DNA from: Teichococcus wenyumeiae
Lineage (GTDB): Bacteria; Pseudomonadota; Alphaproteobacteria; Acetobacterales; Acetobacteraceae
DNA length: 49,077 bases
NCBI RefSeq assembly: GCF_003696345.1
Contig: NZ_RFLX01000026.1
Location: 1-49,077 of the forward strand
Direction of reading: 5' to 3'
This document shows positions 43,319 through 47,070 of the stretch, in pieces (position 1 is the stretch's first letter; each line of letters opens with the position of its first letter). A program made the translations under genes and the position numbers. The notes beneath the pieces are model-generated. The model searched no databases. It saw only the letters and a list, made by a program, of their open reading frames with translations, and had not been told where the DNA came from.

Positions 43319-44659
43319 TCAGCGCGCCTTGCCGTCCAGTTCCGCGCGGGAAGGCCGCGGCGCCGGCAGGCCAGGGCGCATGTCGAATGCCCCGCCGCGG
43401 AAGCCCGGCATGTCGCGCGACATCGGGCCGACAATACCGCCAAGGGCGGCTGCCCGCTCCGAAGGGGCCAGCAGCCGGCCTCGGGGCGGTTCCGGCAGGG
43501 CTCCGCCGCTATCCGGTTCCGTGGCACCGGGCGCGCCGGCCATGGCGCCCGGCCGGATGGCCGCTTCCTGCGGGCTGTGACCGGTGAAGTCGTTGTGCGG
43601 TGTCAGGGGCTGACGCAGGACGCGGATGTCGCCGCTCGAGGGCAGGTCAGGCTGCGGCTGTGGCGCGTGCGGTGCCCCGGCCGGGGCCGCCGAGGGTTGC
43701 GCGCCCACCGGCGCCGCCGGCTGCAAGGCTGGCGCCGCGTCGGACATGGGCGGAGATGCGGCCGGTGGCGCGCTATCCCCGCGTCCATCCAGGATCAGCG
43801 GCAGGCCGGAGCCACCGTTGCCGATGACCACGATCTTGCTGTTCGGGGATTGCGACAGCGCCACCGTTGCCTCGATGCCGCGCCAGCGCAGGAAGCTGTC
43901 CGAGATGGCAGGGCTGACAATCTCCTGGAAGCGGCGGATGCCCTGGGCCTCGATCTCGCGCCGCTGGGCTTCCAGCCGTTCCTGGTCGATGCTGAAGCGG
44001 TAGCGGCGCACCGCCTGGTCGGCGGCGAGCTTTTCCTCGATCGACTGCCGGACGATGGGGGGCAGGGTGATGCTGCGGACGCTGAAGTCGGAGATGACGA
44101 TCAGCGGGCTGCCGGTGGAACCGTGGTTGACGTGAACGGCGGTGAGCTTCTGCTGAAGGCCGGCCGCGATGTCGTCCTCGATGGCGCGGTGGGCGACGGC
44201 GTAGAGCTGCTCCGGAGGGCTGTCGGCGATGCGCTCGCGCACCGAGGCGGCGATCAGCGGCTCGATCAGGCGCGCGGCATATTCCGGGCCGACGGAGATG
44301 TGCAACTCCGGCGCGGAACTGGGAGCGATGACGAAGGTCACCGTGGTTTCCAGCACCAGCGGCAGACCTTCCCGGGTCAGGGAAGTAATGGTGTGGTCGA
44401 TGCGCTGCAGACGGATCGGGTAGAGATACACCCGGTCCCACGGAAAGACCGCCTTGGTGCCCTCACTGAAATGGAAGCTGGTGATGGTGCCGCCCAGGAA
44501 GCGCATCCACAGCACGCCCACATGGCCGGGGGGGATGGTGATGAAGATGCGGTTCCAGAGCAGGATCACCAGAAAGGCCACGATCAGCAGGCCGAAGGCC
44601 CCACGCGCCCACCAGGGGTTGCGGCGGCGCGGGGCAGGGGTGGCCATGGTCACGCTCAT
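43319..44659 (-). CDS. SPFH/band-7 (prohibitin/stomatin/HflC-like) membrane protein with a Pro/Ala-rich disordered C-terminal tail
   Basis: 446 aa. It has an N-terminal TM segment (GAFGLLIVAFLVILLW) and an SPFH-like core (PPGHVGVLWMRFLGG...ITSLTREGLPLVLETTVTF...). About 170 aa of low-complexity P/A/G-rich tail follows. The start overlaps the ABC gene's stop (ATGA). Confidence 0.7.
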   Translation of the reverse strand: MSVTMATPAPRRRNPWWARGAFGLLIVAFLVILLWNRIFITIPPGHVGVLWMRFLGGTITSFHFSEGTKAVFPWDRVYLYPIRLQRIDHTITSLTREGLPLVLETTVTFVIAPSSAPELHISVGPEYAARLIEPLIAASVRERIADSPPEQLYAVAHRAIEDDIAAGLQQKLTAVHVNHGSTGSPLIVISDFSVRSITLPPIVRQSIEEKLAADQAVRRYRFSIDQERLEAQRREIEAQGIRRFQEIVSPAISDSFLRWRGIEATVALSQSPNSKIVVIGNGGSGLPLILDGRGDSAPPAASPPMSDAAPALQPAAPVGAQPSAAPAGAPHAPQPQPDLPSSGDIRVLRQPLTPHNDFTGHSPQEAAIRPGAMAGAPGATEPDSGGALPEPPRGRLLAPSERAAALGGIVGPMSRDMPGFRGGAFDMRPGLPAPRPSRAELDGKAR

Positions 44660-46353
44660 GCGGCGGGAACCTCTGTCATGCGGCCGTCTTCCATGTGGTA
44701 GCGGCGGTCGGCGGCGTCGAAGTAGCGGTCGTCGTGGGTGATGGCGATCACGGCCTTGCCTTCCGCCCGGAGGCGCGGCAGCAGCACGCGGTAGAAGGCC
44801 TCACGCGACTGCGGGTCCTGGTCCGCCGCCCATTCGTCCAGCACCAGCACGGGCCGCTCCTCGGCCAGTGCCAGTGCCAGGGCCAGCCGCTTGCGCTGGC
44901 CCGTGGACAGGGTGCGGGGGTCGAAGCCATCGCGCGGGTCGGCCGGCAGCTTGTCGGCGATGCCGAAGCCTTCCAGCTCCCGCCGCAGGCGGGGCAGCTG
45001 GGCGTCGGTCAGGCCATGGGGGTGACGGAACAGATAGGCGTCGGCGAAGACGGCGCCGAACAGTTCCCGATAGGCGTCGCCCTCCTGCACGGCATCCGAC
45101 ACCGGTGTGCCGTTCAGCAGCAATCGCCCGGCCGTGGGCGGATAAAGGCCGATCGCGACCCGGAGCGCGGTGGTCTTGCCCGAACCGTTGCCGCCGGTGA
45201 CGAACACCACCTCGCCTGCCGCGACCTCGAAGCTGACGGGCCCGACGCGGTAGGCGGCATCGCCGCCCTGCGGGCGGTGCGCGTAGCACAACCCGTCCGC
45301 GCGCAGGGATCGGAAGGGCGGCAGCGATGGCGGCGGCCCCTCGGGCGGCTGCAGGGTGTCCAGCAGCGCTTCGAATTCTTTCAAGGCATTGATGGCGAAG
45401 CGCGCGGTGGCGAGCTGCTTCGCGGCGCCCACCGTGGCGCCCATGGGGCCGATCAGGAACAGAACCACCGCCACCAGGCGGGGAAGATCCGCGTTGTCGG
45501 CGCTGCCCAGGATGGGCAGCAGGAACACCACGGCACCCCCCATCAGGTAGGCCATGGAATTGCCGAACACGATGACGTCGCCGAAGATGCCGGCGGTGAC
45601 CGCGCGTTCCATGCCGGAGCGGGTGGATTGCGTGTCCACCGCGTCCAGCACCGCCGCGCGCTTCCGGTGGTCCAGCCGCAATTCCTTGAAGCCGTCCAGC
45701 AACTCGGCCAGCGCACCGGCCAGCCCGGATTCTGCGGCGGCGGCGGCGCGCATGCGCTGGGCCAGCTCGGCACGCTTGCCCAGATAGGCCTGGATCAGGA
45801 TAAAGAACACGCCCAGGCTCAGCAGCGCCGCCATCACGGACAGCGTGGCGAGGTAGCCCAGCGTCAGCACCAGCAGCACTAGCGACTGCAGCCCTGTCAG
45901 GATGCCGACCATGGCTTCAGAGATGGTTGCGTAATGGCGGGCAAGGCCGCCCTGGAGCTGTTCCCTGGGCAGGGTCTCGAAGCGCCGGAGGTCGAGGCGC
46001 AGCACCTTGCCGGCGATGGCGGTGCGCTGCCGGTCCAGCGCCGCCTCCACCGCGGCCGCCGTGCGCCGCAGCAGGCCACGTTGCAGGCCGCGGTAGAGCA
46101 GCAGCAGCACGACGAACATGAGTCCGTGCCACAGCACCTCGTCCGCATCGCCTTCCACGACCGCGGAACTGTTGAGCATGGCGACGATGCCTGTGCCGCA
46201 CAGGCCGGCAAGGGCGGTCATCACCACCACCTGCCACGGCGCTTCGAGCCGCAGCAGGTCGGTACGCAGGGTCCGCAACGACGGTGCGCGAATGCGCAGC
46301 CGCGCGATCAGCGAGAGCAGACGCTCGCCGAGAGGCGATGCTGCCTCGTTCAT
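44656..46353 (-). CDS. ABC transporter with fused permease and ATPase, cyclic-peptide exporter family (SyrD/PvdE/YojI-like)
   Basis: 565 aa. The N-terminal half is a multi-TM region. The C-terminal half is a nucleotide-binding domain with Walker A (GGNGSGKTT), the ABC signature (LSTGQRKRLALALA) and Walker B (LVLDEW). Size and architecture are typical of peptide-exporting half-transporters found in NRPS clusters. Confidence 0.8.
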   Translation of the reverse strand: MNEAASPLGERLLSLIARLRIRAPSLRTLRTDLLRLEAPWQVVVMTALAGLCGTGIVAMLNSSAVVEGDADEVLWHGLMFVVLLLLYRGLQRGLLRRTAAAVEAALDRQRTAIAGKVLRLDLRRFETLPREQLQGGLARHYATISEAMVGILTGLQSLVLLVLTLGYLATLSVMAALLSLGVFFILIQAYLGKRAELAQRMRAAAAAESGLAGALAELLDGFKELRLDHRKRAAVLDAVDTQSTRSGMERAVTAGIFGDVIVFGNSMAYLMGGAVVFLLPILGSADNADLPRLVAVVLFLIGPMGATVGAAKQLATARFAINALKEFEALLDTLQPPEGPPPSLPPFRSLRADGLCYAHRPQGGDAAYRVGPVSFEVAAGEVVFVTGGNGSGKTTALRVAIGLYPPTAGRLLLNGTPVSDAVQEGDAYRELFGAVFADAYLFRHPHGLTDAQLPRLRRELEGFGIADKLPADPRDGFDPRTLSTGQRKRLALALALAEERPVLVLDEWAADQDPQSREAFYRVLLPRLRAEGKAVIAITHDDRYFDAADRRYHMEDGRMTEVPAA

Positions 46354-46380
46354 AAGTCTATTCCGTAGCGCTATGCAGAG

Positions 46381-46548
46381 TCAGATCCGCGTCTGGCGCG
46401 GGGCGCTGACCAGTAGAATGAGCGCGGTCACGAGAGGGGTGATCAGGATCGAGAGCACAAGGAAGCCCGCGAAGCCGATCTCCCGCCCACGCCCGGCCCA
46501 GGCCACTGCCAGGCACGTCAGGACGTAGAGCAGGAGCAGCAGCGTCAT
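46381..46548 (-). CDS. small hydrophobic membrane protein (55 aa), absent from the ORF track
   Basis: MTLLLLLYVLTCLAVAWAGRGREIGFAGFLVLSILITPLVTALILLVSAPRQTRI has two predicted TM helices. It sits 9 nt downstream of the preceding gene and 27 nt upstream of the ABC gene on the same strand, a spacing that suggests an operon. Confidence 0.4.
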   Translation of the reverse strand: MTLLLLLYVLTCLAVAWAGRGREIGFAGFLVLSILITPLVTALILLVSAPRQTRI

Positions 46549-46557
46549 GGGCGTTGT

Positions 46558-47070
46558 TCAGCCGGCCTTGTTGCGGGTCTTGGCTGAGGTGAACTCGCGC
46601 TGCAGGTCGGCCTGCACCGCATCGGCGCTGAAGGTGCCGAAGGTGCCGCCGCCTTCGAAGTGTCGCACGAAGATCTTGCCGATGGCGTAGGTGGCCGCGG
46701 CGCTGAAGCCCGCCAGCGCGGCCCCGCCCAGCAGCAGCCCGACGCCGGGCACCGCCTTGATGCCCGAGCCCACCACCGCGCCGGCGACGCCGGTGGCCAT
46801 GCCGGGCGCCAGGGTGCCGAGCAGCACGCTGATCAGGGAGCGCGCGCTCTCGCTGGAAATGCTCTCGCCGTAGAGCTTGGCGATGCGGTTGATCATGGTG
46901 GCCTGCACGGCGCCCAGCGCCACCAGATCCACCACCGGCAGGGGAATGATGCCGCAGGCGGCCGACCAGCCGCAGGAATTCGAGATGATCTGGGATGCGG
47001 CCGCCAGACGGTCGCCCTGGCTCAGCACTGCTGGCATGGCGTTATCTGCGTGCTGGGTCGTCGTGGACAT
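46558..47070 (-). CDS. hypothetical membrane-associated protein, DUF697/YcjF-like glycine-zipper region
   Basis: The track ORF extends to 47163, but the ATG at 47068-47070 (MSTTTQHADNAMPAVL) is the more likely start. A Gly/Ala-rich hydrophobic segment (GTLAPGMATGVAGAVVGSGIKAVPGVGLLLGGAALAGFSAAATYAIGKIF) resembles DUF697. The family assignment is tentative. Confidence 0.45.
   Translation of the reverse strand: MSTTTQHADNAMPAVLSQGDRLAAASQIISNSCGWSAACGIIPLPVVDLVALGAVQATMINRIAKLYGESISSESARSLISVLLGTLAPGMATGVAGAVVGSGIKAVPGVGLLLGGAALAGFSAAATYAIGKIFVRHFEGGGTFGTFSADAVQADLQREFTSAKTRNKAG

Follow-up and report, generated by a model that had tools for sequence, protein, structure and literature searches.

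What does a prohibitin-type protein do in an operon with a putative peptide exporter, beside a natural-product gene cluster? The question is raised by the complete 49,077-bp contig NZ_RFLX01000026.1 of the alphaproteobacterium Teichococcus (Pseudoroseomonas) wenyumeiae (Roseomonadaceae); this contig, at its full length, is called the window. Six hybrid polyketide synthase–nonribosomal peptide synthetase (PKS-NRPS) genes fill positions 172–43276 on the plus strand, and a cassette of four tightly spaced minus-strand genes converges on them. In the order of the minus strand, the cassette encodes a DUF697 protein (46558–47070), a small membrane protein of 55 amino acids (aa; 46381–46548), an ATP-binding cassette (ABC) half-transporter (44656–46353) and a protein of the SPFH/Band_7 family (43319–44659). 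The first three genes are separated by gaps of 9 nt (46549–46557) and 27 nt (46354–46380), and at positions 44656–44659 an ATGA sequence makes the ABC stop overlap the SPFH start. This convergent layout, with its gaps and its overlap, had been described in the initial annotation, and every open reading frame (ORF) was located as described there. The answer that we favour, with slightly better than even confidence, is that the cassette forms the export and membrane-handling module of the adjacent PKS-NRPS cluster, in which a ring of SPFH protein would enclose or abut the pump.

The overlap depends on the choice of the SPFH start. The public record lists a prohibitin family protein of 400 aa beginning at the GTG at position 44521 (V47 in our numbering). 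This start was ruled out, as it loses the anchor helix and the invariant residues P43 and G45. Because the N-terminus is conserved among the homologs, we assign the true start to the ATG at 44659, giving a protein of 446 aa, and the ATGA overlap with the ABC stop follows from this assignment. For the DUF697 protein, listed at 170 aa in the public record as well, a longer form beginning at a TTG at 47163 was rejected: the extension shows a non-coding G+C distribution over codon positions, and both the homologs and the public start agree with the ATG at 47070.

The conservation of the cassette was first surveyed in the contigs encoding the closest SPFH homologs (44–77% identity). Most of them carried the DUF697 gene, an ORF of 54–61 aa, an ABC gene of 547–575 aa and the SPFH gene in that order, within surroundings that differed: a phosphopantetheinyl transferase (PPTase) and type II thioesterase (TEII) pair, another NRPS with PhyH and TauD, a PKS-NRPS, or an RND pump locus. 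In the 77% identical locus (L001), the PPTase-TEII-cassette order was that of the window. In a species-level scan, the SPFH alignment was then compared with one genome per species, which yielded 80 loci with 33–49% identity from Alpha-, Beta- and Gammaproteobacteria and from metagenome-assembled genomes (MAGs) of Thermoanaerobaculia and Anaerolineales. Adjacencies were counted with tblastn and ORF scripts, the SPFH-sampled loci numbering 89 in all. An ABC homolog lay directly upstream of the SPFH gene, on the same strand, in 67 of the 80 species-level genome loci, and in 71 of the 82 SPFH-sampled loci with at least 1.8 kb of upstream sequence. When the nearest SPFH start was taken, this start and the ABC stop overlapped by 4, 8 or 1 nt in 22, 20 and 13 loci, respectively, which corresponds to 55 of 74. 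A DUF697 gene was found upstream in 59 of the 76 loci with enough flanking sequence, and a two-helix ORF was present between DUF697 and ABC in 59 of the 63 complete cassettes. Its recurrence in dozens of genomes that are not related to each other places this arrangement far beyond chance. The suspected functional tie between the SPFH protein and the exporter is strongly backed by the conserved adjacency and by the frequency of the stop/start overlap.

The pairwise distances between the proteins were highly correlated across loci, with Mantel r values of 0.92 for SPFH-ABC, 0.93 for ABC-DUF697, 0.88 for SPFH-DUF697 and 0.76–0.78 for the small protein; none of 2000 permutations reached the observed r. 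These values fit the inheritance of the four proteins as one unit, with a contribution of the shared species phylogeny to the correlation. The DUF697 and 55-aa proteins are conserved members of the cassette and not bystanders.

The ABC protein (565 aa) is a fused transmembrane domain–nucleotide-binding domain (TMD-NBD) half-transporter of the SyrD/PvdE/YojI group. It matched PF00005 with 83 bits and possesses hydrophobic helices within the N-terminal 310 residues. The Walker A (GGNGSGKTT), signature (LSTGQRKR) and Walker B (LDEWAADQD) motifs were invariant across the family alignment. The initial annotation had named it a SyrD-like exporter. The resemblance is confirmed by an alignment to TIGR01194 (cyclic peptide export; SyrD/PvdE) that spans positions 11–547 of 554 with 256.0 bits, and the membership is to be corrected, as this score is under the cutoff of 286.2 and the protein falls into an SPFH-linked subclade of its own. 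The score with the PRK10522/YojI equivalog, 290.5 bits, was similarly under its cutoff of 604. The protein is best described from its sequence as a relative of SyrD, PvdE and YojI, not as a certified member of the subfamily. Its transport would be directed outward, as we infer from the family resemblance and the cluster context.

A tree of 159 ABC sequences placed 78 of the 86 SPFH-linked proteins in one clade of 84, and 59 of the 65 unlinked proteins outside it; this tree is a neighbour-joining tree only, and its sampling is biased, half of the loci having been chosen via SPFH. The reverse test was made with relatives of the ABC protein sampled independently of SPFH, in 80 metagenome loci with 25–47% identity. 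Of the 21 loci that ranked highest, 13 had an SPFH gene after the ABC gene, whereas the other 59 loci had none in this place. Since no distant ABC protein carried an SPFH neighbour and the linked proteins cluster in the tree, the linkage appears as the mark of one subclade of the SyrD/YojI-like family and not as a general property of such pumps. A co-occurrence of SPFH genes with SyrD-like exporters was thus found, and in this sample it was restricted to close relatives of this ABC protein.

The SPFH protein matched PF01145 (Band_7) with 83.2 bits (cutoff 23.6, E 2.9e-23) over residues 41–226, in agreement with the initial call. Six sequence matches were found in the PDB, all of them to prohibitin 1 or 2, the best with an E value of 2.9e-9. 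An AlphaFold2 model of the monomer was built from a 20-sequence alignment, and the predicted local distance difference test (pLDDT) score was above 90 across residues 20–250 approximately. The top five Foldseek matches of this model were human prohibitin complexes (best 8RRH, E 7e-18); HflK/C, erlin, stomatin, QmcA and flotillin were found at lower ranks. Both the sequence and the modelled fold make prohibitin the nearest solved relative, and we classify the protein as of prohibitin (SPFH4) type. Prohibitin, HflK/C, erlin, stomatin, QmcA and flotillin all form rings or cages, and the model suggests that the present protein may assemble in a similar manner. No second Band_7 ORF and no protease gene was found in the window region or in the related loci, so that the tandem SPFH pair that characterizes HflK/HflC is absent there.

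Three parts could be distinguished in the SPFH protein. The N-terminal membrane anchor corresponds to a modelled helix at residues 15–38 (44546–44617), with a hydropathy peak at residues 24–42. The conserved alignment columns and the model then delimit a body of residues 39–290 (43790–44545), composed of an α/β domain (residues 39–198), a 48-residue helix (201–248), a second helix (254–269) and two short strands at the conserved motifs NSKIVVIG and GLPLIL. The remainder, residues 291–446 (43322–43789), is a disordered tail of 156 aa with a pLDDT below 50 and a combined content of 51% proline, alanine and glycine (19%, 19% and 13%, respectively). The low complexity previously seen in this tail is real; its length had been put at about 170 aa, and it is not peculiar to the protein of the window. 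The tails of the homologs could not be aligned, with a median length of 76 aa, a maximum of 208 aa and comparable contents of proline (17.5%) and alanine (16.3%), and the Pro/Ala-rich tail thus appears as a family trait of variable length. It is most simply read as a flexible periplasmic extension. Four arginines precede the anchor helix. The mean net charge was +3.0 before the anchor and +0.6 after it, and this pattern was observed in 50 of the 62 homologs with a recognisable anchor. Because the positive charge is concentrated before the helix, the positive-inside rule predicts that the anchor is most likely oriented N-in/C-out, which is how prohibitin and HflK/C are oriented, with the body and the tail in the periplasm. 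The idea of the initial annotation that the SPFH protein could scaffold the megasynthase becomes unlikely if this prediction holds, because the megasynthase is cytoplasmic.

The two smaller proteins could be characterized to different degrees. The DUF697 (YcjF-like) protein is a membrane-associated helical protein of 170 aa, and its initial assignment was borne out by PF05128 (56.4 bits, cutoff 27.7, E 3.9e-15). Its score with the YcjF model TIGR01620 was 22.5 bits, far under the cutoff of 160, and no YcjX-like gene was adjacent to it in the window. The 55-aa protein possesses two hydrophobic helices, a motif GRxRxIGFxGxFxLSxxxTP and a coding-type G+C content at third codon positions (0.88). 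It had no Pfam or NCBIfam match, and when 25 of its homologs were scanned singly against Pfam, only scattered chance matches were seen, with two members per family at most. A single-sequence search among 1.84 billion representative proteins retrieved 157 clusters. Because nearly all of these were 50–100 aa long, the 55-aa protein can be considered, on its sequence, as belonging to a genuine small-protein family that has no curated entry.

The product of the PKS-NRPS cluster can be approached through its domains. According to the domain calls, the cluster starts with a fatty-acyl-AMP-ligase (FAAL)-type loader with ACP-KS-AT-DH-cMT-KR. Two Cy-A-Ox modules are of the thiazole type, with heterocyclisation and nitroreductase-type oxidase domains, and one KS module contains a class-III aminotransferase. 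Three S-adenosylmethionine-dependent methyltransferase insertions were observed, several modules being N-methyltransferase-containing; an FkbM-type methyltransferase lies within an A domain, and a TubC-type docking domain and a terminal TE are also present. The product is probably a lipidated, N-methylated, thiazole-bearing peptide-polyketide, and it is the FAAL-type loading module, together with the thiazole-forming and N-methylating modules, that suggests its lipophilic character.

Six minus-strand genes converge on this block, as the cassette is preceded by genes for a PPTase and a TEII. The TEII gene (47238–47921; PF00975, 113 bits) ends 167 nt upstream of the DUF697 gene and is possibly part of the same transcription unit; the 167-nt spacer showed no clear common motif with that of the closest relative, L001. 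The PPTase (48110–48892) is of Sfp/HetI type, with matches to PF01648 and PF22624 and a score of 113 bits with the HetI model NF042922, under the cutoff. At the other end of the cassette, the stop of the last NRPS gene (43276) and the end of the SPFH stop (43319) face each other across a spacer of 42 nt. This spacer contains a GC-rich hairpin at positions 43282–43312 (−32.9 kcal/mol, z −2.8 compared with shuffled sequences), which is likely a bidirectional terminator, although a T-run is absent. A consensus scan of positions 43000–49077 found no sigma-70-like promoter, and terminator-like sites in the same interval were weak, situated within coding sequence and no more frequent than in shuffled sequences. 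The G+C content, 0.72–0.77 in the PKS-NRPS core, decreased to 0.69 in the cassette and to 0.61–0.63 in the PPTase and TEII genes, a range also seen at the left end of the contig (positions 1–2000 and 44000–49077). These steps suggest that the cluster is compositionally mosaic.

Similar surroundings were found elsewhere. Of the 46 linked genome loci with a length of 12 kb or more, 33 had, in the flanking 10 kb on either side, a PPTase or TEII gene or a domain of the C, A, KS or AT type, and three further loci had YcaO genes. In Bradyrhizobium ontarionense (L170, 5268–18062) and in a gammaproteobacterial MAG (L171, 7183–18315), a FAAL-initiated megasynthase followed directly on the ABC-SPFH pair, in the same direction; a PPTase gene, also in this direction, came just before the pair in both, MbtH was also present in L170, and DUF697 was annotated in neither. 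A FAAL-like gene was detectable within the flanks of three loci only, and no conclusion on a link to FAAL-initiated clusters is drawn from them. In L008 and L009 (1–15400), the ABC-SPFH pair, without DUF697, was located between lasso-type genes (Asn-synthase-like, transglutaminase-core and HPr-kinase-like) and genes for YcaO and a nitroreductase. The pairing therefore extends to clusters for ribosomally synthesized and post-translationally modified peptides (RiPPs). The SPFH protein had initially been regarded as foreign to the standard content of biosynthetic gene clusters. It is indeed unrecognised as such a component, and yet a recurrent one. The SPFH-ABC pairing belongs to a four-gene cassette that is shared by many Proteobacteria and by members of a few further phyla; as thiotemplate or RiPP clusters are usually its neighbours, it is an unrecognised but common accessory of such clusters. 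In the Nitrospirillum loci L012 (9962–19720) and L013, the SPFH gene was followed, with a 4-nt overlap, by a gene for an 865-aa protein with weak BNR/Ycf48-like repeats, and two DUF697-like and two ABC genes were convergent downstream.

We propose the following model for the export and membrane-handling module. The ABC protein, a homodimer-type half-transporter akin to SyrD, PvdE, YojI and McjD, would pump the finished product from the cytoplasm. Because the ABC stop overlaps the SPFH start, the pump and the SPFH protein would be made together. The SPFH protein would be held in the membrane by one N-in helix, with the SPFH domain, the coiled coil and the capping strands facing the periplasm, and it would oligomerise into a ring or cage fencing a patch of the membrane. 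This ring would enclose or abut the exporter, the DUF697 protein and the 55-aa protein. It might stabilise or regulate the pump, or confine the exit site of a lipophilic product, and from its cap the disordered Pro/Ala tail would reach out into the periplasm.

Several observations weigh against this model. The contact between the SPFH protein and the pump is one that we infer, and the comparison of 86 linked with 59 unlinked ABC proteins revealed only three signature residues (Q91, S243 and E328) and no insertion specific to the clade on which docking could take place. The correlated distances could partly result from the shared species phylogeny. A periplasmic cage would be separated by the membrane from the NBDs and the megasynthase. 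The preference for export over import is drawn from family resemblance, with an ABC score below the TIGR01194 cutoff. Finally, the pump is not always there. In Azorhizobium doebereinerae, several Hyphomicrobium genomes and two alphaproteobacterial MAGs, SPFH came after DUF697, and the 20 kb of the locus contained no ABC homolog. The ABC-less loci L036, L038, L040, L053 and L054 were convergent on a TEII gene, with a PPTase gene adjoining; among the ABC-less genome loci, a small two-helix homolog between DUF697 and SPFH was confirmed only in that of A. doebereinerae (L038, 8844–11203). A metagenome NRPS locus (L007) similarly showed DUF697, a 57-aa ORF and SPFH without an adjacent ABC gene. About 1 kb from this trio, at 11075–16000, a second DUF697 gene overlapped a gene for a ParA/MinD-like ATPase, beside two ABC half-transporters, which hints at P-loop NTPases as the partners of DUF697 proteins. 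The SPFH gene is the common denominator of the variants, and the non-ABC trio can stand alone; because this trio exists without an ABC gene, the SPFH protein can work without the pump and is not merely an exporter accessory.

The persistence of the trio without an ABC gene, beside TEII and PPTase genes, speaks for a second explanation, the main rival, which we hold possible although rather unlikely: the SPFH, DUF697 and small proteins would guard the inner membrane, much as Psp, flotillin or YqfA, from the lipophilic product that the cell itself makes, and the pump would merely be co-expressed with them, outside any complex. Such a self-protection role agrees with the lipophilic product suggested by the FAAL-type loader and by the thiazole-forming and N-methylating modules, and with two precedents. 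In many species YcjF, the founder of the DUF697 family, is encoded next to psp operons, and damage to the envelope induces it (PMC3041696, PMC8125068); the SPFH protein YqfA of Bacillus subtilis gives resistance to a toxic peptide (cited in PMC2636767). The first precedent is weakened by the distance of the DUF697 protein of the window from YcjF (22 bits against a cutoff of 160). Moreover, co-regulation alone would need neither a stop/start overlap between ABC and SPFH conserved in most loci nor ABC and SPFH distances that track each other as they do (r 0.92).

An adaptor role in quality control appears improbable. By analogy, the SPFH protein would recruit or restrain the housekeeping FtsH and so govern how the exporter, or other membrane proteins, are turned over, as could be expected from its nearest solved relatives, prohibitin and HflK/C, which both partner AAA proteases (PMC2636767). 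However, no FtsH or other protease gene was found in the window or in any examined locus, the SPFH gene is single where HflK and HflC form a pair, and what is conserved next to it is an ABC pump with two small membrane proteins. Still less probable is that the ABC protein is an importer with an exporter fold, such as YbtPQ, and that the cassette serves the uptake or sensing of a siderophore or peptide. YbtQ was among the weak PDB matches of the ABC protein (E 1e-18), and one ABC homolog is labelled as of hydroxamate-siderophore type by UniRef, but the best family matches (TIGR01194 and YojI) are exporters, the cassette occurs in lasso/YcaO RiPP clusters, where such pumps provide export or immunity, and no TonB-dependent receptor or binding protein is conserved alongside it. 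A fortuitous adjacency of unrelated transcription units, for which the absence of a promoter from the consensus scan might be invoked, has a negligible probability and is effectively refuted by the same order, strand and overlaps in dozens of species from several phyla.

The export module proposed here can be compared with known systems. It resembles HflK/C–FtsH of Escherichia coli and prohibitin–m-AAA of mitochondria by its N-terminal anchor, its coiled coil, its capping strands and a body situated in the periplasm or intermembrane space, as is predicted here. In those two systems the fold is known to cage a membrane machine, whereas the present case is known from genes and from the model of a monomer; the partner is an ABC exporter with two small proteins, the SPFH gene is single and the disordered tail is long. 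The stomatin, QmcA and flotillin operons with NfeD (SPFH1/2/5) also associate an SPFH gene with small membrane-protein partners in a conserved manner. The cassette differs from them in that its neighbours gave no NfeD match, and in that its SPFH protein is of the SPFH4 type and is predicted to be periplasmic instead of cytoplasmic. With the SyrD, PvdE, YojI and McjD exporters, the ABC protein shares homology over its full length (about 565 aa), the fused TMD-NBD and a location beside NRPS or RiPP clusters; it differs by scores below both curated cutoffs and by its subclade marked by a downstream SPFH gene, distant SyrD-like pumps being without SPFH. YcjX–YcjF of E. coli, which has a link to envelope stress, associates a DUF697 membrane protein with a P-loop NTPase, whereas the DUF697 protein of the window is of a short, 170-aa form, has no YcjX-type GTPase, and has the ABC pump as its neighbouring NTPase.

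In open-access papers and bioRxiv preprints, to which a description in a subscription journal might be added, the SPFH–ABC exporter operon was represented by one anecdote and one proximity-labelling result only. The former is the NRPS/PKS island of Thalassobaculum sp. OXR-137, where the same pairing was reported from a single genome, with no DUF697, small protein, comparative analysis or function (PMC12016528). In the latter, the balhimycin exporter Tba, a glycopeptide exporter, proximity-labelled an SPFH paraslipin, which was read as a membrane microdomain (PMC11960670) and offers an experimental precedent for an SPFH protein near a natural-product exporter; the organism is an actinomycete, the SPFH subfamily is another one and the genes are not operon-linked. 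The same literature yielded no account of the cassette as a set of four genes, of the DUF697 and small proteins as its members or of how widely it occurs. The survey of Hinderhofer et al. (2009) states that no bacterial prohibitin (SPFH4) had been studied, and transporters are not mentioned in its text (PMC2636767). For nine SPFH proteins of Pseudomonas aeruginosa, a study of 2026 found no phenotypes (PMC13086221). What is new here is an SPFH scaffold whose genetically coupled client would be an ABC exporter, instead of a protease or an NfeD protein.

The roles of bacterial SPFH proteins are largely unknown, and a coupled ABC exporter gives them a concrete candidate client and a testable phenotype in product export, pump stability or self-resistance. 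The succession of an ABC gene and a prohibitin gene is a simple genomic marker for a subclass of proteobacterial clusters, and in the heterologous expression of such clusters, titre or host tolerance may depend on the cassette. It also provides a context for two orphan families, the short DUF697 proteins and the membrane protein of about 55 aa. On a more general level, we suggest tentatively, and with less confidence than for the window itself, that bacterial prohibitins may have a dedicated client system of their own, in which a periplasm-facing cage, a DUF697 protein and a protein of about 55 aa would constitute a platform housing a specialised ABC exporter, for the secretion or tolerance of peptide and polyketide products in Proteobacteria. 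If true, this would represent a third class of SPFH–client machine, beside SPFH–AAA protease and SPFH–NfeD.

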